From Crocosphaera subtropica ATCC 51142 (GTDB taxonomy: Bacteria > Cyanobacteriota > Cyanobacteriia > Cyanobacteriales > Microcystaceae): 32,000 nt of DNA. Position 1 is the first letter of the stretch, and each line of letters begins with the position of its first letter. The DNA lies in contig NC_010546.1 of the NCBI RefSeq assembly GCF_000017845.1, forward strand, positions 330,001-362,000. The letters run 5' to 3'. Below the pieces are notes generated by a model. It saw only the letters and a list, made by a program, of their open reading frames with translations, made no database searches and was not told the origin of the DNA. Positions 14,936 to 29,946 of the stretch are shown in pieces. The translations under genes and the position numbers were made by a program.

Positions 14936-14967
14936 AAAAAGACGGGCGTTAACCCGTCTTTTGTTTT
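14936..14967 (+). terminator. Rho-independent terminator
   Basis: AAAAA-GACGGG-CGTTAA-CCCGTC-TTTTGTTTTG. The A-run upstream makes it potentially bidirectional. The T-tract merges into the outermost CRISPR repeat. Confidence 0.7.
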
Positions 14968-15075
14968 GTTTCAACTAAGTTCTCTTATTAAAAGAGAGTT
15001 AATCAAAAGACTAGAAAAGATAGAGGAGGATCTTTATAAGTTTCCATTCAACTAAGTTCTCTTATAAAAAGAGAG
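14963..15075 (-). CRISPR. CRISPR mini-array 1 (2 repeats, 1 spacer) downstream of cas2
   Basis: Repeat A is 14963-14998 (GTTTTGTTTCAACTAAGTTCTCTTATTAAAAGAGAG) and repeat B is 15040-15075 (GTTTCCATTCAACTAAGTTCTCTTATAAAAAGAGAG); they match at 32/36 positions. The spacer is 41 nt. Minus-strand sense is inferred because the degenerate repeat is distal to cas2 and the sense repeat would end ...GTTGAATGGAAAC. Confidence 0.6.
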
Positions 15076-15119
15076 GGTACTCGCTGTAACCCCTATCCTG
15101 ACTAGAGTCTAGAAGCGGT

Positions 15120-15255
15120 TTGCGAGGGATAGCTTTATTGTAGTCTCAGAACATAAAAAAGACCTCCGTGAAATCGCTGAAATCCGCATCAGATAAGGGT
15201 GCGAGGGTTAGAACAAGATCATCAGGGTTACAGAGATTTTCCTTATCCCTCGCAA
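15120..15255. repeat. 136-bp element with perfect 12-bp terminal inverted repeats inside the putative leader of array 1
   Basis: TTGCGAGGGATA (15120-15131) has its exact reverse complement TATCCCTCGCAA at 15244-15255. A third partial copy GTGCGAGGGTTA is internal, as is the hairpin ATCATCAG...CTGATGAT. Confidence 0.45.
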
Positions 15256-15282
15256 GCTGATGATACAAAAATTAGATCCTCG

Positions 15283-15310
15283 GTAGGGGTTAACGGCCGT
15301 TAACCCCTAC
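15283..15310 (-). terminator. 28-nt perfect GC-rich palindrome (copy 1), likely hairpin terminator after cas2
   Basis: GTAGGGGTTAACGGCCGTTAACCCCTAC (12-bp stem, GGCC loop) lies 29 nt downstream of the cas2 stop. A second copy lies at 28022-28049. Confidence 0.5.
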
Positions 15311-15338
15311 AAAATATTAGGCCACGAAACCAGAACAA

Positions 15339-15698
15339 TTAGACAATGGTAGACGACGGGGGTTTTGTGAGGTCTTTCCCTCCCCAGAGTTCAACTTGTC
15401 CTAATGTATGATCAGAAATAGGATAAAAACGGATGCTATCCTCATCTAAGTTGACTCGTTCCTTCATTCGGGTACATAACTGTTTATATTGCGCTTTAGT
15501 TAAAACACATTCAAACACGGAATATTGAACCCGTTGGCCATAGCCTTCAAGAAGATCAGACACTTTTTTACGACGGCGATCGCATACAATATCATAGGTA
15601 ACAACATAAAACACATCAATTTTTTGTCCTGTGTGTGTGATTGCTTCGGGGGATTTTTGCTGAGAATCAAAGATAAATGTTGATTTTACCCCTCGCAA
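15339..15698 (-). CDS. cas2: CRISPR-associated endoribonuclease Cas2
   Basis: FYVVTYDIVCDRRRKKVSDLLEGYGQRVQYSVFECVL...SIRFYPI is a canonical Cas2 ferredoxin-fold sequence. The track start is TTG at 15698. An in-frame GTG at 15614 would give a typical 91-aa MFYVVTYDI... protein. Confidence 0.9.
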   Translation of the reverse strand: MRGVKSTFIFDSQQKSPEAITHTGQKIDVFYVVTYDIVCDRRRKKVSDLLEGYGQRVQYSVFECVLTKAQYKQLCTRMKERVNLDEDSIRFYPISDHTLGQVELWGGKDLTKPPSSTIV

Positions 15699-15717
15699 TG
15701 ACGAATTGATTGCTAAT

Positions 15718-16710
15718 TTATCGTATTAAATAAGGTTGATAACCGTAAGCAGGGGAATAGACAAATGCTTTATATCGTTTAACCTGCTGCATGAGAAGAT
15801 CCCAACGGGGTTGCTTTTCATCGGGGGTGGTTTGTACAGTTTCCTCCATACGTTGTACAAAATGCTTGAGATACTTTTTTCGTCCCGTATTATTGAGATA
15901 GCAACCGCCATCATGATATTCAAAATCATCGTCAGCGTTCATAATCCGACGATTAACCAGGTATAACACCAAAGAATCCACCATAGGGGCGCGAAACTCC
16001 TCAATTAAGTCAGAAGCTAAAGCGGCATGACGTTCGGAACCCTGATGTAAACAAGCTTGATAGGGATCAAGTCCTTGTAGTTCAATTAATGCTAACAAAT
16101 GATTCCATAACACCTGATAACCAAAACTCAACATCGCATTAACTGGGTTGCCAGGGGGACGACGGGAACGGGCTAGAAAAATAAATTCAGACGGGGTTAA
16201 ACAGTCACCAAAGGCAGAAAAATAAGTGCTTGCGCCGACTCCTTCAAACCCCATTAATCGCTCGATGGTTTCAGCAAGATTGGCCTGTTCAATTAAATAG
16301 TTTAAACTATCAATGGCAAAGAGAAGTTTATCGGATTGTAACCGTCTTTGTTGTCGTTGTAAAATGACGCGACAATTTTTTAGTTTAGCTTTAACCAATT
16401 CTCTTGCGGTTAATAATCGTTGCGAAAAATCTAATTGTTGTTGATAACGAGTAAGATGACGATAACCCCGTTTAAGGGACATAATACGTCCATAACAGTA
16501 ACCCATTCGTGAAAGATAGACAATAGGAATATTGCGCCAAAGACAAGCACGAATCGCTTGGGTAGTCATTTGAGATTTACCAAAAATAAGAACTTGTTCG
16601 ATTAAGGGTAATTGAATTTCTGCTAAAAGTTGTCGTTTTTTCTCCACTTTTAAAGTTTCTTGGTCAAGTTTAACATAACAGCCCTGTTGAGACACATATA
16701 AAGTTTTCAT
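15718..16710 (-). CDS. cas1: CRISPR-associated endonuclease Cas1
   Basis: MKTLYVSQQGCYVKLDQETLKV...LIFGKSQMTTQAIRACL...GFEGVGASTYF...RHAALASDLIEEFRAPMVDSLV carries the Cas1 E/H/D-E catalytic motifs. It is 330 aa. Confidence 0.95.
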   Translation of the reverse strand: MKTLYVSQQGCYVKLDQETLKVEKKRQLLAEIQLPLIEQVLIFGKSQMTTQAIRACLWRNIPIVYLSRMGYCYGRIMSLKRGYRHLTRYQQQLDFSQRLLTARELVKAKLKNCRVILQRQQRRLQSDKLLFAIDSLNYLIEQANLAETIERLMGFEGVGASTYFSAFGDCLTPSEFIFLARSRRPPGNPVNAMLSFGYQVLWNHLLALIELQGLDPYQACLHQGSERHAALASDLIEEFRAPMVDSLVLYLVNRRIMNADDDFEYHDGGCYLNNTGRKKYLKHFVQRMEETVQTTPDEKQPRWDLLMQQVKRYKAFVYSPAYGYQPYLIR

Positions 16711-16994
16711 TCCTTATCAATATTTTTACGTTCAATTTGTTGGGATTGTTGCCAACGGGTCAGATTTCCTGATTGATGAATAATCCGTTTCGGTGGAGGT
16801 GAAAAGGATAACCAAACTATGATAAAATCGCAAATTGAACAGACAATAAAAGTAGAAAATGTGACCAGAAAAGTATTAGTAATAACTGCAGCTAAACCCA
16901 AGGGGGCAATTAATAAAAGAGTAAGGGTAACAATACAATTGATAGCAGATGCTGCTATATTACGCACAAACGCAGCCCTTTTTGAGATATACAT
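16707..16994 (-). CDS. Hypothetical 95-aa two-TM protein, translationally coupled to cas1
   Basis: Its TGA overlaps the cas1 ATG (ATGA at 16707-16710). It has two hydrophobic helices (IAASAINCIVTLTLLLIAPLGLAAVI; TFLVTFSTFIVCSICDFIIVWLSF) and a basic/Gln-rich tail. No family was recognised. Confidence 0.5.
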   Translation of the reverse strand: MYISKRAAFVRNIAASAINCIVTLTLLLIAPLGLAAVITNTFLVTFSTFIVCSICDFIIVWLSFSPPPKRIIHQSGNLTRWQQSQQIERKNIDKE

Positions 16995-17164
16995 AGGAAA
17001 AATACTGTAAAATTCATTGTTTCTAATTTAACAAAAGTATTTAATTGAAGGCTAACAAAAGACAATATTGAGCATAAATTTTTGAAACCCTAGAAATAAG
17101 CTAAATAACAGTTTTTGATGGGGTTTTGGGTATCCTGTATAAAAATAGTCTTTTACTTGACAGT

Positions 17165-18370
17165 ATGAAAAATAAGTTTAAACCTCATCGTTATTCTGAT
17201 TTAGAAAGCTTTGAACGCTTGTTATTATTGATAGCAATCTTGGTAAAATATCCAGGCGTGGGTTATCGTGATCGCAATTTATTAGATACAACAGAAATTC
17301 ATTACAATGCTTTAGAAGAAGTCAAGTTTTATTTACAAAAATTAGCCGATCAGTTAGGGATAGATTTACCTGAAGATTATCCAGCGATCACTACATTACG
17401 CAAAGACTTAGAAACCCTAAAAGATTATCAGATTTTAGAAAAAAGAATGTATCGTTGGGGTTACTATTTAGGGACAGGGGTGATGTCTCCCTTAGAATTA
17501 AAAATTGCTTTAGATGCCTTAGAATCTTTAGCTATCAAACAAGGCGATCCCAGAATTCGGAAAATTACTGAACAATTTAAAAAGCGGTTACGAGGTTTTG
17601 CAGCATTAGAAGATCAGCAACTCTTTTATCCTGTTCGACAACAGCTTAATCATGCCATAAACTACACTGATCCCGACGAAATGATGGAAAAAGGGGTTTA
17701 TCGTCAAACTCTTTTTCATCATATCCATATCTTAGAAACTGCTATTATCGAAGGTCAAATTATCGAAATTTCTAGAAAAAAAGATTTATATGATAATAAA
17801 CGAGTGGGAATCATGAAAGTTTATCCTTTACAACTCATTTATCATAATGTGGCTTGGTATTTACTTCATGAAGATTATAAAAATGAACATTTAGTTATCA
17901 GTCGAGTTAACCGTTTAGGGAATTATTGTAAAATCCTCGAACCATCAGGAAGAGGAATCAATAAACAAAAACAAAGCCTCACGAAAGCTTATCAACTTCT
18001 AGAAAATGGATGGGGATTAAAATTAGGAAATTTAGAAGAACAAAAACAAGAGTTAGCAGGAAAACTAAACTTCGTTAAAGCAAAAGTTCGCTTTTTTTAT
18101 CCCGTCAGTCAGTTTATAGAAGAAGGGGAACGCCGTCATCCCAAACAAAAAATTAAGCGAGGAAAAATTGATCCTCAAACCCATCAACCCCAATATATTG
18201 ATTATTCTGTTGCTTTACCCCTGCGATCGCTAGATGAGTTTTACTTCTGGTTAAACAGTTACGGGGAATATGTGCAAGTGTTGGCCCCGTCTGAGTTGGT
18301 GGAGAGACATCAGCGATCGGCCTTAACATTAGTTTCTCGTTATGGCTGCAATAAAGATAATATCACCTAA
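17165..18370 (+). CDS. WYL-domain transcriptional regulator (CRISPR-associated)
   Basis: The core VYPLQLIYHNVAWYLLHEDYKNEHLVISRVNRL is a WYL-domain signature. The N-terminal segment (SFERLLLLIAILVKYPGVGYRD) is HTH-like. The gene is divergent from the cas1 operon and directly upstream of cas10. ATG at 17165 is preferred over the track's TTG at 17126. Confidence 0.75.
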   Translation: MKNKFKPHRYSDLESFERLLLLIAILVKYPGVGYRDRNLLDTTEIHYNALEEVKFYLQKLADQLGIDLPEDYPAITTLRKDLETLKDYQILEKRMYRWGYYLGTGVMSPLELKIALDALESLAIKQGDPRIRKITEQFKKRLRGFAALEDQQLFYPVRQQLNHAINYTDPDEMMEKGVYRQTLFHHIHILETAIIEGQIIEISRKKDLYDNKRVGIMKVYPLQLIYHNVAWYLLHEDYKNEHLVISRVNRLGNYCKILEPSGRGINKQKQSLTKAYQLLENGWGLKLGNLEEQKQELAGKLNFVKAKVRFFYPVSQFIEEGERRHPKQKIKRGKIDPQTHQPQYIDYSVALPLRSLDEFYFWLNSYGEYVQVLAPSELVERHQRSALTLVSRYGCNKDNIT

Positions 18371-18516
18371 GAAAATTTATATCAGCTTTAAACATTGATT
18401 ATATATAGCTTTCAAGCATCGTCAAAAAAAGTTTATCAATATTGTGATATGTCTTTTTGTTTCTAGGGAAGACTAACTATAGTAAAAACAACCAAGCAAC
18501 CCAGGAAGTTTAATCA

Positions 18517-21500
18517 GTGAGTCATCTGTATCATCCGTATTGGCAAGCAAAAATTTGGGCATTACTGCATGATCCAGCCTTAAAACCCTTATCGGATCGA
18601 TATGGTTTTGCGAGAGAGGGGCAATGGCAGTTATTGCGATGTATGCAAGGATGTAAGTCCCCTAAAGATAACAAAAAGGTGTTAGGAGACTGTGTATTGC
18701 AGGGTAACTGGTTAAACCATGTGGGGTTATGTGATTTAGTCGCTTCGGCCAGCGATCGCAGTACCATCGGCAGACTCGATCCACAATATAGCGCAGTTAC
18801 CTATCAACAGCAAACCGGCTTACAGATCCGTCATTTATTATCAGGAGAACCCCAAAACCTTAAAGTTAATAATAACTGGCAAGAAAACTTAATTACTAAA
18901 CGGAAGAAACTAGAAGCAAAAGAAGCAGAATTTTTAGATAAAATTAGCCAGTGGGAAGATCCAAAAAAAGTTTTTTGGGCGTTATGGAGATGTTATGCTG
19001 AAGTCTTAGAAAAAGAAGAAGCTTTAATACATTTATTACCAGCAGAAACTCGTTTACCGGATGGATCATTGTGGAGTCATGTGAGTATGACTTCTGCATT
19101 AGCTGGAGGGTTAGCCGGGTATTATAAACAAGCTGAAAATTATCCTATTAAAAACCAAAAATTTAATGATTATTCTCGACCGTATTTAGTTAATTTTACC
19201 TTTTCTCCTGTACAAGAATTGATCAAAGCGAGTCGCAAAATGCGAGATTTTTGGGCAGGATCTTGGATTTTACATTATCTTTCTGCTAAGGTTTCTTATG
19301 CGATCGCTAATGAATATGGTCCCGATACTTTACTCTATCCTTGTCTGTATCAACAGCCATTAATTGATAACTGGTTATTAGAAGAATATTCTGATTTCAA
19401 GGAATGGATAGAACCTCATAAACCCGATCAATTATTAACGGCAGGTTTCCCTAATGTTATTATTATGATTTTACCCAATAATCATAAATCTCAACAGGAT
19501 CTAAAAGATAATCCTATTTATGCAGCGACTCAGTTAGCAAAACGTACTTTAAAAGAAGAATGGAAAAAGTTAGGAGATCAAAGTTTAGAATTTTTACAAG
19601 ATAGTAAACAGTGGCAAAATATTAACCCAAATACTTGGGATAAATGGTTAAAGTGTCAATGGCAAACTTATTATACAGCCTTTCCTATTGGTGATCCTGA
19701 GAGTGACTTAACTTGTTCTTTAAGAGTGGGTAAAAATGAAACGGAAGAGCAAAAAAAAGACGCTTTTGAAGCTTGGTGTCATCAACAAAATCAGTTAACC
19801 AACCCGAAAGAATCTTTATTTGAAACCAATGAAGAGAAATTTTTAAAAGCTATCTTTAAACTAACCGATATAGAAACAGAAAAAGAACCACCAAAAACAA
19901 AATATAGTAAGCAACCTAACTTAAATGTAGGATCATGGTGGGCTTATGTTTTTGATCAATTAAGAACCAGTTTAAATGCAGTTAAAAATGCTAGAACTTG
20001 GGAACTTCCCACAGCCTTTACCGTTCGTTCTAGCTTATCAGGAATCGGTTCTGCAGTTCATCCTATTGTCAATGAAGAGAAACCCGATCGCATTTCTGAA
20101 AAAGAAATTAACGAGTTTTGGTCAGAAAAATTCGGTTTATTTGATGGTACTGAAAAACTCAATGCAACGGAAATTGTCAAGCGAGTGTTACATAAATTAT
20201 TACCTGAGATATTGAACTATGAAGAACAAGAAATCAGCTTATATTATCCTGATTTAACCGCCGGAGTCGCCGGTTATTTAAAAAATGCACTATTAAACAA
20301 TCAACAGTCAGAAATTGATTATTATAAACGTTCTTGTCATAAGATTTACAAAGAAATTCAACCGCTTTTAGATAATGATAACCTTAGCCAAAGTTGGGGT
20401 ATTCCTTGGATTAATAATAATAAAGAATTGAAACTGAGTAATACCATTCATCATCCTCGTTTACTCAATGCAGGTTGGTTACTCGAAGATGTAGAAATAT
20501 CCCATGATAGTAATATAGAGTATCGAGAAAAATTAGAAGAATTAAGTACAAAAAGAACAACTATACAACAAGTTATCAATAAATATTATCCTAGTAATAA
20601 TCCTACCAATTGGTATATTTTAGTTGCTGGTGATGGTGATAGTATGAGAGACTGGTTAAGAGGTAGTAAATTAAAAAATTATGGTGAATATTTGCCCGAT
20701 GAATTAAGAGAAAAAATTATTAATGATAGTAATGATGAAATTCCTAAAGAATATAAAGAACCCTTACAAAACTTTCTCGAAGTTAGAAAACGTATGGGAC
20801 CATCAACCCATAGTGCTTTAAGTCGTGCCTTACTTGACTTTTCTAATCAATTAGTTCCTTATTTAACCGAACAAAGATACGCAGGAAGATTAATTTATAG
20901 TGGTGGCGATGATGTTTTAGCTTATACAAATTTATGGGAATGGGACAACTGGTTATGGGATATTCGTCAATGTTTTAAGGGTCAAGAAGATCCCTATAAT
21001 GAGTTTAAAAATGAGGGTGACTATTGGCAATGGAATAAACCAAATAAACCCAAAAATATAGCCCAAAGACCTTTATTTACAATGGGAAAATGTGCTACTA
21101 TTAGCTTTGGAATTGTGATTGCTCATCACTCTATTCCGTTAGCGATCGCTTTAGAAAGTTTATGGGAAGCAGAAGAAGAAGCTAAAGAACATTACACACA
21201 AAAAGATAATAAAGACACTTACAAAGATGCCGTACAAGTTCGAGTTTTGTATGGTAATGGAAACACCTTAAAATCTACATCAAAATTTGATATTTTTAAC
21301 CAGTGGAAACAACTGCTAAAATTAGACTTAGAACCCAGTTTATTTGAACAAGCTGCTACCATTTGGGAACAACATCCTATCCCAGATAAAAGTGCAATTG
21401 AACCCTGGACAAAAGCCTTTTGTAGTCGTCGAGATATAGGAGAAGAATTACAACAAGACTATCAAAAAATATTAACCAGTTTTATTCAAGGATTATGGAT

Positions 21501-21600
21501 AACGACCCCTCAAAATAACTTAGATAAAGAGGTTAAGAACTGGCTAAAACTGGCAGCATTTGTGAAACGAAATCGTAAAATTAGCTTAAACCAGGAGTAA
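18517..21600 (+). CDS. cas10: Type III-B Cas10/Cmr2 large subunit
   Basis: 1027 aa with a GTG start. It has a Cmr2-type N-terminal HD motif WALLHDPALKP (HD at 18568-18573), the first palm motif ILVAGDGDSM, and the cyclase motif YSGGDDVLAY (GGDD at 20902-20913). Confidence 0.95.
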   Translation: MSHLYHPYWQAKIWALLHDPALKPLSDRYGFAREGQWQLLRCMQGCKSPKDNKKVLGDCVLQGNWLNHVGLCDLVASASDRSTIGRLDPQYSAVTYQQQTGLQIRHLLSGEPQNLKVNNNWQENLITKRKKLEAKEAEFLDKISQWEDPKKVFWALWRCYAEVLEKEEALIHLLPAETRLPDGSLWSHVSMTSALAGGLAGYYKQAENYPIKNQKFNDYSRPYLVNFTFSPVQELIKASRKMRDFWAGSWILHYLSAKVSYAIANEYGPDTLLYPCLYQQPLIDNWLLEEYSDFKEWIEPHKPDQLLTAGFPNVIIMILPNNHKSQQDLKDNPIYAATQLAKRTLKEEWKKLGDQSLEFLQDSKQWQNINPNTWDKWLKCQWQTYYTAFPIGDPESDLTCSLRVGKNETEEQKKDAFEAWCHQQNQLTNPKESLFETNEEKFLKAIFKLTDIETEKEPPKTKYSKQPNLNVGSWWAYVFDQLRTSLNAVKNARTWELPTAFTVRSSLSGIGSAVHPIVNEEKPDRISEKEINEFWSEKFGLFDGTEKLNATEIVKRVLHKLLPEILNYEEQEISLYYPDLTAGVAGYLKNALLNNQQSEIDYYKRSCHKIYKEIQPLLDNDNLSQSWGIPWINNNKELKLSNTIHHPRLLNAGWLLEDVEISHDSNIEYREKLEELSTKRTTIQQVINKYYPSNNPTNWYILVAGDGDSMRDWLRGSKLKNYGEYLPDELREKIINDSNDEIPKEYKEPLQNFLEVRKRMGPSTHSALSRALLDFSNQLVPYLTEQRYAGRLIYSGGDDVLAYTNLWEWDNWLWDIRQCFKGQEDPYNEFKNEGDYWQWNKPNKPKNIAQRPLFTMGKCATISFGIVIAHHSIPLAIALESLWEAEEEAKEHYTQKDNKDTYKDAVQVRVLYGNGNTLKSTSKFDIFNQWKQLLKLDLEPSLFEQAATIWEQHPIPDKSAIEPWTKAFCSRRDIGEELQQDYQKILTSFIQGLWITTPQNNLDKEVKNWLKLAAFVKRNRKISLNQE

Positions 21601-21606
21601 CAAACT

Positions 21607-23348
<1,742 letters not shown>

Positions 23349-23350
23349 TT

Positions 23351-24637
23351 ATGGCTAGTATTGTATTATCATTTGTTGGCAATCAAGATCCTGCGTCTGA
23401 AACTACTAATCAAGAAGGATCAATTATTACCTTAATTCGTCATCTTATCAAGCTAAATTCTAAAATAAGAAAAGTTATCTTACTTTATACAGAAGATACA
23501 AAAGATAATGCTATTTTAACTAAAGAATGGCTACAACAAGATGATTTTAAAATTTCAACGAATCAAATTGAACTAATAGCAGTTTCTAGTAATTTATCAG
23601 ATGATCCTGTTGATGTGAAATTAGCAACTCAAGAAGCTAATAAAGGCTTAAAACAAGCAAAAAATTATCGTAAAGATAATGATATTTTTGAGTTTAACTC
23701 ATCTTCTGGTACACCTTCAATGAAAACTGCCTGGGGAATTTTACAAGCTTCTAGTTATGGAATTAATAGTAGACTTTGGCAAGTTAGAAATCCTAAGAAA
23801 ATTCAGCCTTCTCAAGAACTTGTTTTTGAGAATAATGTGAATGTTTTTAAAGATGAATCGAATTTTAGTGTTATTAAAAAACAGTTACAAAATTATAACT
23901 ATAGTGGGGCAATAGAAAGTTTAAACAATAGTGATTTAGATAGTAAAATTTCCCATAATTTAATGGAATATGGTTATTATCGTTTAGCATTTGATTTTCA
24001 ATCCGCTAGAGAAGTTATACAACCTTATCAGGAAGAAATTAGTCAAGAATTAATCAAAAATATTAACGATTTGTATAATGAAAATATCCTAGAATTATTA
24101 CAGGAAGTTTACTATAAAGGAATTATTAAAATTAAAAATAAACAGTATGCTGACTTTTTAGTTTTGTTATTTTCGTTTCAGGAAAACATACTTAAGTTTT
24201 TAGTCAAACAGCAAATTCTTAAAGATACTTCTCAACCGTTACATTGGAAAGTTGCTAAAGAAAAAATCAATTATCAATTACAAAAAGGAGAACTCAATGA
24301 ATATCTAAAAAACTATTCTTATGACGGGCGATCGCTTAAACTAAATGGAGATATTAATCGCATTGTTATGTTAGCTATCTTAGACTATTTTTCTCAGTTG
24401 GATAATCACTTAAGTCAAATAACTTTGCTGCTTAAACAACTAGAAAATTATTGTCAAATTAGAAATGAATTAGTACATGATATTAAAAGAGTTTCTGAAC
24501 TAGAAAATGAAAGCGAAATTATCAAAACTATGCGAGAAATTCTCATTTTAACAAAACCTAATTTTCAAACTGTCAACCCTTTTAATTTACTCAACGAACA
24601 AATCGTTAAACAATTAACACCATTAGTCAGAGGTTAA
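23351..24637 (+). CDS. csx1: CARF-HEPN ribonuclease (Csx1/Csm6 family)
   Basis: The N-terminal Rossmann-like CARF domain carries IVLSFVGNQDP... and NSSSGTPSMKTAW. The C-terminal HEPN Rx4H motif is IRNELVHD (24461-24478). The ATG at 23351 lies 2 nt after the cmr3 stop. The position between cmr3 and cmr4 matches P. furiosus. Confidence 0.8.
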   Translation: MASIVLSFVGNQDPASETTNQEGSIITLIRHLIKLNSKIRKVILLYTEDTKDNAILTKEWLQQDDFKISTNQIELIAVSSNLSDDPVDVKLATQEANKGLKQAKNYRKDNDIFEFNSSSGTPSMKTAWGILQASSYGINSRLWQVRNPKKIQPSQELVFENNVNVFKDESNFSVIKKQLQNYNYSGAIESLNNSDLDSKISHNLMEYGYYRLAFDFQSAREVIQPYQEEISQELIKNINDLYNENILELLQEVYYKGIIKIKNKQYADFLVLLFSFQENILKFLVKQQILKDTSQPLHWKVAKEKINYQLQKGELNEYLKNYSYDGRSLKLNGDINRIVMLAILDYFSQLDNHLSQITLLLKQLENYCQIRNELVHDIKRVSELENESEIIKTMREILILTKPNFQTVNPFNLLNEQIVKQLTPLVRG

Positions 24638-24641
24638 ACCC

Positions 24642-25535
24642 ATGAAAGACTTTCGCTTAAACTATTTATATAGCTTATCTCCTATTCATTGTGGAGGAGA
24701 AGGAGACTTAGGTAATATATTAGAAATTGCCCGTGAAGTCCACACTAATTTTCCTTATATTCCTGGTTCTTCTATTCGGGGAAGTATCAGAAATGAGGTA
24801 GATATTATTAACTCTGATGCTACTAACAAATTGTTTGGAAAAGAACTCGATGATGATGGAAATATGGGCGTTCATCAAGTATGGTTTGGAGATGCAAGAC
24901 TCTTATGGGTTCCTATGAAAACCATGTCTTTTAATGGTAATCAAGACATTTTTACCTGGGTGAGTTGTCATTCTTTAATTCGGGATCATGCTATTATTTC
25001 TAACTTACCTTTTGTTACTTTCCCTAATGAAGCTGTAGGGACAAATGCAGGGACTTATGAAGTAGCTGATGCTCAAATTAAGGTATTAAAAATTACGCCT
25101 GATCAAGAAAAAACCATTACTTTTTTAGGGGAGTTCCCTGACTCTCTTAAAGACTCTGTTAAACCTACTTGGGAAAGTAATCATATTGTACTCCCTGATG
25201 CTGACTTTCAAGTATTAATGGAACATTCCTTATGGACACAGGTAAGAAATAAAATTTCGGATGGTACAAAAGAAGACACTGAAGCAGGTTCTGCTGAAGT
25301 TTTTTGGACAGATGTTTGTATCCCCCGCGATACTATTTTTTACTTACCTTGGGGTTACAGTTTATCTAAAATTGATCCTATTTCTACCGATGAACATAAT
25401 AAATTAATGGAAGTAATTCAAGGATTAATTCAAGTCGGTGGACAAGCAAACGTCGGACGGGGATGGGTACAAAGTTGGGTTAGTCATTCAACTTTTGAAT
25501 TCAACAAACAAGAACAACAACTCACAAATGTTTAA
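24642..25535 (+). CDS. cmr4: Type III-B backbone RAMP Cmr4 (Cas7 family)
   Basis: LYSLSPIHCGGEGDLGNILEIAREVHTNFPYIPGSSIRGSIRNEV aligns with P. furiosus Cmr4 [43 protein letters not shown]. The C-terminal G-rich loop is VGGQANVGRGW. Confidence 0.9.
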   Translation: MKDFRLNYLYSLSPIHCGGEGDLGNILEIAREVHTNFPYIPGSSIRGSIRNEVDIINSDATNKLFGKELDDDGNMGVHQVWFGDARLLWVPMKTMSFNGNQDIFTWVSCHSLIRDHAIISNLPFVTFPNEAVGTNAGTYEVADAQIKVLKITPDQEKTITFLGEFPDSLKDSVKPTWESNHIVLPDADFQVLMEHSLWTQVRNKISDGTKEDTEAGSAEVFWTDVCIPRDTIFYLPWGYSLSKIDPISTDEHNKLMEVIQGLIQVGGQANVGRGWVQSWVSHSTFEFNKQEQQLTNV

Positions 25536-25544
25536 AAACTGATT

Positions 25545-26087
25545 ATGGCTAAAAAAAATAAATTATCACAATTCCCTAGAGGTAAAAAAACAGTGTCTGC
25601 TAATACAAATGTAACTGCTACACCTCCAAAATATAACGCTAACAACACCAAATCAGAATTAAAAATAAGTCAAGCTACTATTACGAATTCAAAAAAAGTG
25701 CAACCTGAACAAATGAGTTTGTTTGCTCATGCGGCCATTCAAGTTTATATTGAAAAGAAAGGCGAAAAGTCTCTAGACAAAGAAGATTTAAACGCCGTTC
25801 TTAGGTTATCTCAACACTTAAGAATATTTGGGTTATTATCTGCTGTTGGTTATATTAATCAAACTAATGAGCAAGAGGGGAAAGTCCGTAAAAGAACAGT
25901 TCCCGTGTGGCATTGTTTACTCGGATATTTAATTGCACCGAGTGAAAATTTAGACACAAAAGATTTGATGGAAAAAGTTATTAATTTAACAAAAAATGAA
26001 CCACAACAATATATGTCAATGTGGCGAAAGTCTTTATTATTAGCACCTCATTGGAATTTTTGGGCAAGGGCTTATTCTAAGGATTAA
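25545..26087 (+). CDS. cmr5: Type III-B small subunit Cmr5 (Cas11) with a Lys/Asn/Thr-rich N-terminal extension
   Basis: The helical core ...LRLSQHLRIFGLLSAVGYI...QQYMSMWRKSLLLAPHWNFWARA parallels Pfu Cmr5 ...APVMILSNGLLQTLAFL...LWATKEAIALLNWMRRFA. The first 56 aa are low complexity. An alternative start is Met57 (25713). Confidence 0.65.
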   Translation: MAKKNKLSQFPRGKKTVSANTNVTATPPKYNANNTKSELKISQATITNSKKVQPEQMSLFAHAAIQVYIEKKGEKSLDKEDLNAVLRLSQHLRIFGLLSAVGYINQTNEQEGKVRKRTVPVWHCLLGYLIAPSENLDTKDLMEKVINLTKNEPQQYMSMWRKSLLLAPHWNFWARAYSKD

Positions 26088-26095
26088 TAAAAACA

Positions 26096-26158
26096 GTAGG
26101 GTAGGCAAAGAAGTCAATTTTATCAATAAACTAGATATTTAAAAATTCTTGCCCACCT
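26096..26158. repeat. MITE-like hairpin element, copy B, in the cmr5/cmr6 intergenic spacer
   Basis: GTAGGGTAGGCAAAG (26096-26110) pairs with CTTGCCCACCT (26148-26158) across an AT-rich loop. Arm sequence and size match copy A at 12885-12949. Confidence 0.5.
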
Positions 26159-26196
26159 TCCAATATTTCTCTCATTATTAAATAATCAATAAAATT

Positions 26197-27990
26197 ATGT
26201 ATACAGGAAATAAACTGATTGAACTGCTAGAAAAACAACAAGAAACTAGATACAAAACCAACTTATTTAGAAAAGGAACTTTTAGGATTCAATGGCGGGC
26301 AAAAGTTGGTTCCTATCCTCATCCTGATGGGGAAACCATGATTTCTGCTGGTGAACCTTGTGGAAATTGGGAAACTTATAAACAGCAACCAAGAAATGAT
26401 AAATTTATTAATAAAAAGGGAAAAGAAGAAACAATTAAAAAACTAGAACAATACTTAAATGAGTTACCAAAATTACCAATTAATGGTTATATTCCTGGTT
26501 CATCTATTCGGGGTTTAGTGAGGGCGTGGGTAAAAAAAGACCCTGATAAACGTTCACGGATGAATGAATTATTAGGGTATCAAGATGACGAAAAAATAAC
26601 CCCTGGAAAAATTGAATTTTTAGATGCTTATCCTGATAAACCCACTCGTTTAACTATAGATATTATTAATCCTCAACAAGAATTCCAAGTATTACATAAT
26701 CAAGAAAAACAAAGTAATCCTTGTCCTCTTTATACATTGGGTGATGGAGATAATAAAATTAAAGTTACTATTGCTATTCGAGGAATTCCCAATAAAGCAA
26801 CAGAAGAAGATGTTAAACAAGTATGGGAATGGGTAGAACAAGCACTACATTTTTATGGTGTGGGAAGTCGTACTGCTTCGGGATATGGGATGATTAAATC
26901 GGAAAATAAACCTAAACCCATTCGTCCTAAAAATGAAATATCAAAAACTTTTAATTTTACTTTATATAGTCAAGGTTGTTATGGTGCAAATCAAAAAAAT
27001 AGAGATGATGTTCAGTTACGTCCGTCTCATTGGAGGGGTTGGTTAAGGTCTTGGGTTTTACGGTTTTTATTAGGAGTGATGTCAAGAAAAAATGCTGAGA
27101 AAATCTTAGGAGACTTACTAGGAAATATTGACGAAAATAGTGGGAAAAGTTACAAAGGCTGTGTCCGTTTAGAACTTGTTAAAAATCAACTTTGGGGAGA
27201 AGTCTCTGAAGATGAACCAGACTTTTATACTTGGAAAGGTCAATTAAAAATTACTGCACCAAAAGATATTTTAAGCAAGATTATTTTACCTATTATTAGG
27301 TTTGCTTGTAGTGTTGGCGGTGTGGGTAGAGGTTGGCGTAGACCTTTACATATTTTTAGTTTTAATAATGGTAATAAAGCGGCAAGAGGATGTTATCTTA
27401 AACTGTCTCATAAAGTTCCAGATAAAAATACTGGAGAAAAAAAGATTCGTTTATATCAATTATCTCCTAATAAACCTGAATTATGGAGTAAAACTTATGA
27501 TCAATGGCTAAAAGCGATTAAGTCTTATTGCGGTGATAAAATAACCATAGATACAACAATTAATCAAAATTTAGAAGCTGAAGTATTTTCTCCTAATACT
27601 TGCGCTATTTATGCAGTTCCCGGCCCTGATCAAAATCCTATTGATGAATCATATCAAACTTGGCAAAATATTCGTGACAATGAAGAAACTCGTGGGGAGG
27701 GAATGACCCTTATTTATCAAAGTAAATATAAGAAAAAAACTGAAGTGGGTGGTGATGCAGGAAATGGTAATGCTTCTTGTTCTTGGGTTAGTATTAGACG
27801 GGTTAATATACCTAATAAAATAGCACAGACTCAATGTCAAGAAATTGTTTGTTTATTTATGGGAGGACAATTAACTAAAATAGATCATACGGATAATCAG
27901 AATAATTTACGTTCTCACTTTTTAAAAGATTTATCTAATATTCCAGATTCAACCTTATTATTTGGTGTTTCTCCAGATAATAATAATTAA
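26197..27990 (+). CDS. cmr6: Cmr6-Cmr1 fusion RAMP protein (two Cas7-like modules in one 597-aa polypeptide)
   Basis: The N-terminal half is Cmr6-like: NGYIPGSSIRGLVRAWV, GKIEFLDAYP and G-loop YGVGSRTASGYGM. A linker SENKPKPIRPKNEISK lies at ~26897-26950. The C-terminal half is Cmr1-like: FNFTLYSQGCYGAN...LRPSHWRGWLRSWVLRFLLG and G-loop SVGGVGRGWRRP. Confidence 0.75.
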   Translation: MYTGNKLIELLEKQQETRYKTNLFRKGTFRIQWRAKVGSYPHPDGETMISAGEPCGNWETYKQQPRNDKFINKKGKEETIKKLEQYLNELPKLPINGYIPGSSIRGLVRAWVKKDPDKRSRMNELLGYQDDEKITPGKIEFLDAYPDKPTRLTIDIINPQQEFQVLHNQEKQSNPCPLYTLGDGDNKIKVTIAIRGIPNKATEEDVKQVWEWVEQALHFYGVGSRTASGYGMIKSENKPKPIRPKNEISKTFNFTLYSQGCYGANQKNRDDVQLRPSHWRGWLRSWVLRFLLGVMSRKNAEKILGDLLGNIDENSGKSYKGCVRLELVKNQLWGEVSEDEPDFYTWKGQLKITAPKDILSKIILPIIRFACSVGGVGRGWRRPLHIFSFNNGNKAARGCYLKLSHKVPDKNTGEKKIRLYQLSPNKPELWSKTYDQWLKAIKSYCGDKITIDTTINQNLEAEVFSPNTCAIYAVPGPDQNPIDESYQTWQNIRDNEETRGEGMTLIYQSKYKKKTEVGGDAGNGNASCSWVSIRRVNIPNKIAQTQCQEIVCLFMGGQLTKIDHTDNQNNLRSHFLKDLSNIPDSTLLFGVSPDNNN

Positions 27991-28021
27991 TTTTCTCTTA
28001 TTCTATTATCTACAGATATTT

Positions 28022-28049
28022 GTAGGGGTTAACGGCCGTTGACCCCTAC
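28022..28049 (+). terminator. 28-nt GC-rich palindrome (copy 2), likely terminator of the cmr operon
   Basis: GTAGGGGTTAACGGCCGTTGACCCCTAC lies 32 nt after the cmr6-cmr1 stop. It matches the copy at 15283-15310 at 27/28 positions. Confidence 0.5.
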
Positions 28050-28056
28050 TTATTCT

Positions 28057-29475
28057 GGTTCTACCGAACTTAGCGTGTAGATTTAACCACTAAAATGCCA
28101 AGTTAGGAAACTTCTAAGTTTAAAATTATCAAAATTTCTAAAACCATAACCTCTTCTTTTAATCAGCTTTAATTTGTTATTAATTCCCTCCACAACACCG
28201 CTATTTGTTCTCTCGTCAAAGTAAGCAATGATTTCTCCCATCCAACGTCTAATGGTTCCGAAGCTTTTAGGATAAACTGTATGAGCCTCTGCACACCAAT
28301 CCGCTAGTTCAAACAGTCCTGATATCCAATCAATATTTTCATCAAAAACCTTTCTAAATTTCTCTTTTAGAAGGTACATCTTTGAAAGAATAGGTACAGT
28401 TTTATAGATTTCTTCTAATTTCTCTTTTTGTTGGTCGCTTAAATCTTCTTCATTTTTAAGTAAAGCATATTTACTCTTATTTAATCCTGAAAGTAATTGT
28501 TTTTTTTCTGGAGAATCCTTTAAAGCAATTGCTTCTCTTTTTGACTTTTTTCTTTGAGCATCTAACTCATCGGTAACTTGCTTCATTACATGGAATCTAT
28601 CAGCCACTATTTCGGCTTGTGGCATTAATTTTTTAGCCACTTTTTTATAAGGTTGCCAAAAGTCTATACTAACTTCAACTATCTGTCTTAAAACCTCTTC
28701 TCCCCAAGCTTCTAGATATTTTGAGACTTCCTCTTCTGTTCGTTTTTCTATCAGTCCTATAATCACTCCTTTATCCAAATCTACTAAAACTACATAATAC
28801 TTTCCTTGTCCTTTAACTACAGCAATCTCATCTATGCCTAATCGTCTTAATTTCTGTGGTTTCTTCTTCCCTAATTCTTGACCTATATCCTTTAGCATCG
28901 TTTCTATCTCTTGTTCACTTACTCCATTTCTTTGTGCTACGTTTTTAATATCGCCATTTAAAACTTCTGCGACAATTTTCTTCTTCAATCTTTCGGTGTA
29001 AGTTCTCTTTTTCTTGATATCTTTCAATTCTTCTGTGAATTTCTTTTGACATTTTTCACATCTCATTTGACGACGATTTATTTTGAGGTAAACATCTTGC
29101 TCTCCCCAAGATAAATCTCTGATAGTTAGTTCATTATTTTGATGTAGTTTTCTAGTGACAGAACCACAGTATATACAAGTTGTTTTTTTATCTACTTTCT
29201 CTAATGACAAAACTATTCCCATTCCCTTGATTAACTGATAATCCATAACAGTAAATCCTTCTAATTGAAGAATATTTGTCATTAAGTTTAGTTGAGAATT
29301 TGACGGCATTAGTGTAACTTAACTTAAAATAGCATTCTTTTTCTAATACCTATTCAACCATCAAATATCCTTAAAAGCAACCCTGACAAAGCTTTTGGCT
29401 ATTATTCTCTTGTCTTTATGCTTTCAAAAACACGTTTTTATTTTTTTAATTTACATGACAAGTTCGGTAGAACCC
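28057..29475 (-). mobile_element. ISL3-family insertion sequence (1419 bp) with 8-bp target-site duplication
   Basis: The terminal inverted repeats are GGTTCTACCGAACTT... (28057-) and ...AAGTTCGGTAGAACC (-29475), with 15 bp perfect and ~26 bp imperfect. The flanking direct repeat CTTATTCT lies at 28049-28056 and 29476-29483. There is a single transposase ORF. Confidence 0.9.
28083..29309 (-). CDS. ISL3 family transposase
   Basis: 408 aa. The N-terminal zinc-finger pairs are CIYCGS...CEKCQKKF. The DDE region is [22 protein letters not shown]...VSIDFWQPY...ADRFHVMK...[23 protein letters not shown]. Confidence 0.9.
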
Positions 29476-29492
29476 TTATTCTTAATTGAAAA

Positions 29493-29527
29493 CCCACTAA
29501 TTTTTAGGTTAGTGGGTGGTTTTTATT
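29493..29527. terminator. Hairpin terminator between the IS and array 2
   Basis: ACCCACTAA-TTTTTAGG-TTAGTGGGT is followed by GGTTTTTATTT, with GAAA upstream. It could stop the cmr transcript (+) or the array transcript (-). Confidence 0.55.
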
Positions 29528-29604
29528 TAAAATAAAAAAGTTCGTAGTTAAAGCTTTAGCTTTAATGATGACTAGCTTTCTCGTTCTAAAGAACTCACTA
29601 CAAA

Positions 29605-29852
29605 CTAACGTTCAACTAAGTTCTCCGTTAAGAGAAAGTAACACACTTGAAGGTGTTGGTGGTTTATACGACAAGTTTCCATTCAACTAGGTTCTCCGTT
29701 AAGAGAAAGCATCACAGCAAATAGCACACGGAATGTATAATGACGTTTCCATTCAACTAGGTTCTCCGTTAAGAGAAAGTTTTTTGTTTTGTTAGTAGCA
29801 ATACTGACTGACAAAAGTTTCCATTCAACTAGGTTCTCCGTTAAGAGAAAGA
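29605..29852 (-). CRISPR. CRISPR array 2 (4 repeats, 3 spacers)
   Basis: The 35-nt repeat GTTTCCATTCAACTAGGTTCTCCGTTAAGAGAAAG occurs at 29676-29710, 29746-29780 and 29818-29852. A degenerate terminal copy lies at 29605-29639. Spacers are 36, 35 and 37 nt. Minus-strand sense is inferred from the degenerate repeat at the left end; the sense form CTTTCTCTTAACGGAGAACCTAGTTGAATGGAAAC ends in a GAAAC-type tag. Confidence 0.9.
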
Positions 29853-29917
29853 GTCCGTCTGAGAGCCTTTACCCAGAGCGGGTTTCGGACTACAAATCCA
29901 CGCACCCCATGTAATCA

Positions 29918-29946
29918 TCATACTACACTCAACAATCTTCGACAAC
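29918..29946 (-). promoter_or_regulatory. Candidate leader promoter for array 2
   Basis: On the minus strand: TTGTCG (29946-29941), a 17-nt spacer, then TATGAT (29923-29918). It lies ~65 nt upstream of the first repeat. Confidence 0.3.

Follow-up and report, generated by a model that had tools for sequence, protein, structure and literature searches.

How does a type III-B CRISPR-Cas locus that lacks a Cas6 of its own obtain mature CRISPR RNAs (crRNAs)? This question is raised by a locus of Crocosphaera subtropica ATCC 51142, which we analyzed in a 32,000-nt window (C1:330001-362000; positions given without prefix are counted within the window) of a 5.46-Mb host genome made of six replicons and rated 99.99% complete. 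In this window, two short CRISPR arrays (14963-15075 and 29604-29851), with repeats of 36 nt (type A) and 35 nt (type B), respectively, bound a block of cas and cmr genes. Judged by gene content and order, the locus is a relative of the III-B variant (III-Bv) known from Synechocystis, a kinship from which we keep apart the dependence on ribonuclease E (RNase E), proposed by homology. Following this homology, the host RNase E, helped by RNase J, probably cuts the tail of the repeat, leaving a handle of 13-14 nt.

Pfam and NCBIfam scans of all open reading frames (ORFs) gave no match to a Cas6 family in the locus, and when all six frames of the genome were searched with PF01881, PF10040 and TIGR01877, no match was obtained anywhere. 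The same kind of search with PF09559 gave one match in the genome (C1:1195099-1195728), corresponding to an intact cmx6 gene (C1:1195087-1195746; strong PF09559 and TIGR02807 matches), the single genomic cas6, about 0.85 Mb from the window. More specifically, Cmx6 is part of a complete type I-MYXAN locus composed of WYL, cas6/cmx6, cas3, cas8a1/cmx1, cas7/devR, cas5/cmx5, a cas4-cas1 fusion and cas2, with an array of six repeats after them. When 28 Cas6 proteins, drawn from three Pfam families, were searched as a panel against the genome, Cmx6 was the sole real match; a weak match at C1:1973428, consisting of 25 residues across a tRNA-like translation, was discarded as spurious. An earlier note on this DNA had described the locus as Cas6-less, which is borne out by the family scans, the six-frame searches and the panel. 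Deletion of a former cas6 by an insertion sequence (IS) was also considered and ruled out, as the ISL3 element at 28057-29483 leaves only about 66 and 113 nt of other DNA between the cmr6-cmr1 fusion gene and array 2, and relatives without the IS also lack cas6.

The same question was put to the relatives of the locus. A scan for this type of Cas10, with one genome per species, gave 80 loci, whose named hosts are all cyanobacteria (a few carry no label beyond uncultured bacteria), and five annotated plasmid loci were added. The 1,753 ORFs of 86 loci were clustered into families, the most widespread being cas10 (86 loci), cmr3 (83), cmr4 (76) and the Cmr6-Cmr1 fusion (72), followed by WYL (53), cas2 (51), cas1 (50), csx1 (39) and csx18 (38); cmr5 occurs as a 131-aa type (48) or a 180-aa type (25). 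No Cas6 family was found among the clustered ORFs, none of which is matched by the 28-protein panel, and the five plasmid loci have no annotated cas6 within 12-15 kb. A cas6 linked to the cmr genes or to the arrays, as in canonical Cas6-dependent III-B systems, is thus found neither in the window nor in any of the 86 related loci. In 50 host genomes, PF10040 was matched in 42, PF09559 in 19 and PF01881 in 17, outside the locus wherever this could be checked; the PF01881 matches were rejected as a cas6 of the locus, all of them being on other contigs. Five of the 50 genomes have no match to PF10040, PF09559, PF01881, TIGR01877, PF08798 or PF09618, an absence that is suggestive only, several of these assemblies being incomplete.

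Could Cmx6 process the type III repeats in trans, giving 8-nt tags? Its gene is intact, the type III repeats end in AUGGAAAC, resembling common 8-nt tags, and cross-cleavage is a known property of Cas6 enzymes in Anabaena and Methanosarcina (bioRxiv 10.1101/2020.04.14.041012). However, the cognate I-MYXAN repeat shares 13-14 of 36 positions with types A and B, which is chance level (shuffle mean, 12.7), and it carries its hairpin near the 3' end, whereas types A and B carry theirs at the 5' end. PF09559 is moreover absent from 31 of the 50 genomes with such loci, five of the 50 have none of the Cas6 families tested, and three cas6 knock-outs in Synechocystis had no effect on CRISPR3 (PMC3575380). 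We consider processing by Cmx6 improbable. The search of the whole genome proposed in the earlier note did uncover a cas6 outside the locus, in the I-MYXAN system, but one whose repeat is unrelated to those of the window.

The nearest described system is CRISPR3 of the Synechocystis plasmid pSYSA, a III-B variant defined by a Cmr1-Cmr6 fusion and an absent Cas6 (PMC6546367). A query with the Cas10 of the window finds the pSYSA Cmr2 over its full length with 48% identity, and the annotated layout of pSYSA, with the array, cas2, cas1 and csx18 on one strand and cas10, cmr3, cmr4, a small protein and a 649-aa RAMP protein on the other, has its counterpart between the two arrays of the window, where cas2, cas1 and csx18 are on the minus strand, WYL through the RAMP fusion on the plus strand and the ISL3 transposase again on the minus strand. 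Identities between the two systems are 64% for Cas1, 61% for Cas2, 50% for Csx18, 48% for Cas10 and 49% for Cmr3, both along the entire protein, 31% for Cmr4 and 27% for the fusion. The systems are alike in gene order, in orthologous Cas1, Cas2, Csx18, Cas10 and Cmr3, in the Cmr6-Cmr1 fusion, in the absence of cas6, in a 36-nt repeat family with a 5' stem-loop and a tail ending in GGAAAC, and in the host rne and rnj genes. They differ in that the window locus is chromosomal whereas that of pSYSA is on a plasmid; in the WYL, Uma2 and Csm6/Csx1 genes that the window has in addition, within its operon or next to it, and in the slr7088-type peptidase that it lacks; in Cmr4, Cmr5 (180 versus 131 aa) and the fusion, which in the window are of a second subtype with 27-31% identity; and in the arrays, which in Crocosphaera are small, scattered over five sites and of two repeat variants.

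The repeats provide the second line of evidence. In the minus-strand orientation, the type A repeat RNA is predicted to fold into a stem-loop at nt 2-18, with nt 19-36 unpaired; in type B, the stem lies one position further in and the tail counts 17 nt. Both therefore present a stem of 5-6 bp at the 5' end followed by a single-stranded tail of 17-18 nt, and the fold layout of type A is the same as that of the described RNase E substrate (PMC12464536). The tail is A/U-rich and ends in GGAAAC, as in the 36-nt repeat family of III-Bv. Compared in register with the published Synechocystis CRISPR3 repeat (PMC3575380), type A has 26 of its 36 positions in common with it, and where the stems differ, the changes are compensatory. 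Arrays of the related loci yielded 46 distinct repeat variants of one family, with a 5' stem that varies yet stays paired and with positions 28-35 almost invariant (consensus, UUGAAUGGAAAC); the bases A23, U25, G27 and A28, near the Synechocystis cut site, are 90-100% conserved. When columns 2-7 were set against columns 13-18 across the 46 variants, 91.5% of cells paired and five of the six pairs had both partners changed (45 cells). The observed score was not reached in any of 500 shuffles, and sliding the partner by 1-3 columns lowered pairing to 35-65%. Because the stem covaries across relatives, which goes beyond folding energy alone, we judge the hairpin to be real. In the earlier note, the repeat had been described as a weak hairpin with a 17-nt tail: the hairpin stands in the minus-strand orientation, while a tail of 17 nt applies to type B only, that of type A being 18 nt. 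Together with gene order, orthologous Cas proteins and the fusion, this repeat family with its compensatory stem changes supports the likening to the Synechocystis III-Bv that the note had made.

In Synechocystis, RNase E recognizes the stem-loop of the repeat and cuts the single-stranded tail, directly yielding 5' handles of 13 and 14 nt, RNase J acts near the end of the spacer, and crRNAs of 48 and 42 nt result from trimming by a 3' exonuclease (PMC3575380, PMC12464536, PMC10989914). All three cas6 knock-outs leave the CRISPR3 crRNAs unchanged (PMC3575380), and purified RNase E suffices for the correct cut (PMC12464536). The Crocosphaera genome has one gene of the RNase E/G family (a 671-aa open frame; rne at C1:269144-269962) and one RNase J gene (C1:288262-289914). 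By analogy, the repeat RNA would fold into the 5-6-bp 5' stem-loop with its 17-18-nt single-stranded tail, and RNase E would recognize the stem-loop and cut the tail about 13-14 nt before the 3' end of the repeat, with no involvement of Cas6. If the Synechocystis site is transferred in register, cleavage would occur after UUA in type A or CUA in type B, giving GUUGAAUGGAAAC or AGUUGAAUGGAAAC as the 5' handle; RNase J and 3' trimming would then complete the crRNA, to be bound by a Cmr complex of Cas10, Cmr3, Cmr4, Cmr5 and the Cmr6-Cmr1 fusion. That RNase E makes the cut, where it falls and how long the handle is are all inferred by homology only. Types A and B have different stems and an identical stretch of the last 15 nt, and thus would provide the same handle for a single Cmr complex. 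Around the predicted 13-nt site, positions -3 to -1, +2 and +3 are the same as in Synechocystis, and the uridine at +2 fits the ruler rule of RNase E (PMC8682795).

Several observations weigh against maturation by RNase E. Positions -4 and +1 around the predicted cut differ from those of Synechocystis, and the cut is without the -3 adenine preferred by the cyanobacterial RNase E (PMC8682795); this adenine is also missing at the proven 13-nt site of Synechocystis. As Cmr4, Cmr5 and the fusion are of a different subtype (27-31% identity), the complex may have its own way of measuring or holding the handle. The arrays of the window are tiny, with one and three spacers, so that activity is not assured. 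Finally, the earlier note had named, as a finding that would count against its proposal, a cas6 elsewhere in the genome whose product cleaves these repeats; the presence of Cmx6 corresponds to the first half of this statement.

We also asked whether crRNAs may be matured by a nuclease that is encoded in the locus and escapes recognition, namely the Uma2 protein, the Cmr1 part of the fusion or the Csm6/Csx1 protein. Cmr1 and Cas6 have an RRM-type fold in common, and Uma2 (21607-22155, plus strand; PF05685, E 1.8e-31) has the fold of a PD-(D/E)XK nuclease, its gene being embedded in the effector operon of at least 13 related loci. The enzyme responsible for 3' trimming in Synechocystis is still to be identified (PMC12464536). 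Against such a nuclease, the primary cut in Synechocystis is made correctly by purified RNase E alone (PMC12464536), so that no novel enzyme of the locus is required there. In addition, Uma2 is missing from Synechocystis CRISPR3 and from 63 of the 86 loci, and, given a count of 67 copies per genome, it is found in operons at close to chance density; the profile of the fusion matches Cmr6 and Cmr1 structures, no Cas6 being among the best 60 of 71 matches; and none of the nuclease candidates is conserved across the clade. A processing nuclease within the locus is thus very unlikely in our view.

The Uma2 genes deserve some further detail. The copy in the window is one of the 67 in the genome, and Uma2 genes are present in 23 of the 86 related loci. 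Those at least 13 loci in which the gene is co-oriented inside the effector operon have it right after cas10 (the window and eight or more relatives) or after cmr4 (four others), the genes coming from three sequence clusters. An enrichment in these operons is not supported, as about 10 occurrences would be expected in 86 loci by density and at least 13 were seen. We regard it as highly doubtful that the Uma2 genes are functional accessories, either as a second nuclease of III-Bv crRNA maturation or as an effector, rather than passengers.

Array 1 (14963-15075, minus strand) has two type A repeats and one spacer, its distal repeat (14963-14998) being degenerate, and a putative leader at 15076-15338, minus strand, between cas2 and the intact repeat; the same flank is found beside two remote arrays with type A repeats, at C1:809865-810665 (11 repeats) and C1:4904616-4904715 (three repeats). 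Array 2 (29604-29851, minus strand) has four type B repeats, again with a degenerate distal one, and three spacers; its leader (29852-29945, minus strand) is conserved at a two-repeat array with type B-related repeats (C1:2189114-2189198). The leader of array 2 contains a promoter-like site at 29945-29917 (TTGTCG and TATGAT with a 17-nt spacer, a consensus match only), and a terminator-like hairpin (29492-29517, strand not assigned) lies just past the distal end of the array. As the degenerate repeats are at the low-coordinate ends, cas2 adjoins the leader of array 1, and the promoter-like site and the hairpin terminator enclose array 2, both arrays of the window and the three remote arrays are probably transcribed from the minus strand. 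A third repeat type occurs in a three-repeat array at C1:3921434-3921595 (L005:10435-10611), with a MerR gene alongside and no cas6 nearby.

Such short arrays may also indicate a decaying system, in which functional crRNAs are no longer made and the lack of a processing enzyme is without consequence. In favor of decay are the one and three spacers with degenerate distal repeats, the active ISL3 element between the effector operon and array 2, and the loss of the cas10 5' end in a close relative, Cyanothece sp. BG0011. Nevertheless, all eleven cas genes of the window are intact open frames with conserved motifs, the ISL3 element interrupts no gene, and the 0.81-Mb array, the largest of the genome, has 11 perfect repeats and a conserved leader. 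Decay appears as a minor probability. The 0.81-Mb array and the two other remote ones are cas-less, and the type III effector genes of the whole genome are those of the window only.

BG0011, the nearest relative, has 90-98% DNA identity with the window from the flank through cas2, cas1, csx18, WYL, cas10, Uma2 and most of cmr3. Further on, its cmr4, cmr5 and cmr6-cmr1 (L015:14146-17355, compared with window 23334-27990) have only about 28% protein identity and are of the Synechocystis subtype, csx1 is absent, and the array repeat is identical to that of the window. The pattern resembles an exchange of the effector backbone by recombination, at a point inside cmr3 or shortly behind it. The array syntenic to array 1 counts 14 repeats in BG0011 versus two here. 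At L015:9998-10001, BG0011 is missing 864 bp in comparison with window 18368-19231, so that the start of cas10 and its first 239 codons, comprising the HD domain, are gone and the WYL frame continues into cas10. Conversely, a stretch of about 104 bp between cas1 and cas2 of the window (15615-15718), adding 28 codons to the 5' end of cas2, is absent in BG0011.

Across the clade, two backbone subtypes are found, never mixed within a locus, one with the 180-aa Cmr5 (25 loci, including the window and Cyanobacterium aponinum) and one with the 131-aa Cmr5 (48 loci, including Synechocystis). Within a subtype, the fusion proteins share 56-60% identity, compared with 20-27% between subtypes, and one repeat family is used by both. 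Two further families without a Pfam match were observed. One, of about 514 aa, is present in 29 of the 86 loci (e.g., L046:18760-20304) and absent from the window; in both loci inspected, those of Nostoc sp. PCC 7524 (L013) and L046, it comes directly after the fusion gene. The other, of about 414 aa, adjoins cas10 in four loci (L083:19579-20823, L031:5372-6607, L071:8391-9719 and L074:8685-9956), and its homologues are found beside a class of cas6 genes of about 260 aa elsewhere in other genomes.

Every ORF between the arrays was assigned by Pfam, NCBIfam or fold, in agreement with the gene list of the earlier note. On the minus strand, cas2 (15339-15698; PF09827, E 1.3e-24) is followed by cas1 (15718-16710; PF01867, E 1.5e-89) and by csx18 (16707-16994; NF040558, E 1.6e-27), an adaptation-associated small protein that had been listed under the generic label of a "2-TM ORF"; its identity is Csx18. 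The plus-strand genes begin with a WYL/WCX-domain protein, a probable regulator (17126-18370; PF25583 and PF13280), and continue with cas10/cmr2 (18517-21600; TIGR02577, E 5.6e-49), whose product has both the HD and the GGDD motif, the GGDD columns being invariant in A1. After Uma2 come cmr3 (22158-23348; PF09700, E 2.5e-59), a CARF accessory gene of the Csm6/Csx1 family (23333-24637; TIGR02672, E 1.7e-25, below the cut-off; 42% identity to the C. aponinum homologue) and cmr4 (24642-25535; TIGR02580, E 7.7e-26). The next ORF (25545-26087), of 180 aa, passes the threshold of no sequence family; its AlphaFold model (pLDDT 77, 24 homologues) was compared by Foldseek, the best 16 Protein Data Bank (PDB) matches all being Cmr5, and on the basis of this modelled fold it is Cmr5 (Cas11), in a long variant. 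The III-Bv signature gene, cmr6-cmr1 (26197-27990), encodes 597 aa with Cmr6 as the N-terminal and Cmr1 as the C-terminal part; a profile of 37 homologues matches Cmr6 chains at 66-275 (E 3.9e-23) and Cmr1 at 311-428 (E 3.9e-5), and TIGR01898 is matched by all 37 members of the family and TIGR01894 (Cmr1) by 22. The ISL3-family insertion sequence (28057-29483, minus strand; NF033550, E 1.3e-95; 39-nt imperfect inverted repeats) has two 100% identical copies at other sites of the genome and is outside the CRISPR system proper. The genes flanking the arrays encode an ABC ATPase, an SPFH protein and an NMT1-like binding protein, all unrelated to CRISPR, as the note had stated. A palindrome of 28 nt, perfect or nearly so (GTAGGGGTTAACGG and its complement), occurs at 15283-15310 and 28022-28049, and at least a dozen genome sites carry it.

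How does the locus compare with other known systems? The best annotated effector match is the III-B locus of C. aponinum PCC 10605 on plasmid pCYAN10605.01 (Cas10 55%, Cmr4 67%, Cmr5 50%, fusion 56%, Csx1 42%), which also has the long Cmr5, the repeat family and no cas6, but lacks cas1-cas2-csx18 within 12 kb and has a toxin-antitoxin pair in the operon and a 45-repeat array. Canonical III-B systems (Pyrococcus furiosus, Thermus thermophilus) have the Cas10, Cmr3, Cmr4, Cmr5, Cmr6 and Cmr1 modules in common with the window, while they rely on Cas6 and 8-nt tags and keep Cmr1 and Cmr6 separate, in contrast to the absent cognate cas6 and the Cmr6-Cmr1 fusion found here. Housekeeping RNases are likewise used by type II systems (RNase III with tracrRNA) and by the Staphylococcus III-A system (polynucleotide phosphorylase [PNPase] and RNase J2 trimming), with different enzymes and substrates; in Staphylococcus III-A, Cas6 still makes the primary cut.

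In conclusion, the III-Bv kind became known in 2013, and its mechanism in 2018, so that the window locus is a further example, which leaves the current view of CRISPR biology unchanged. Behler 2018 (Nat Microbiol 3:367) is said to be the paper on the mechanism in Synechocystis. No publication describing the window locus was found in the literature searched, the coverage of which was incomplete. RNase E-dependent crRNA maturation has so far been shown in one organism, and the locus places the same system, by homology, in a second, well-studied model. There, two repeat variants with different stems and an identical 15-nt tail would offer a natural test of what RNase E reads. Considering the 86 loci without cas6, the covarying stem-loop and the two interchangeable backbone subtypes on one repeat, our results suggest that these systems do without Cas6 as a stable trait across a large cyanobacterial clade, rather than by an accident of Synechocystis.

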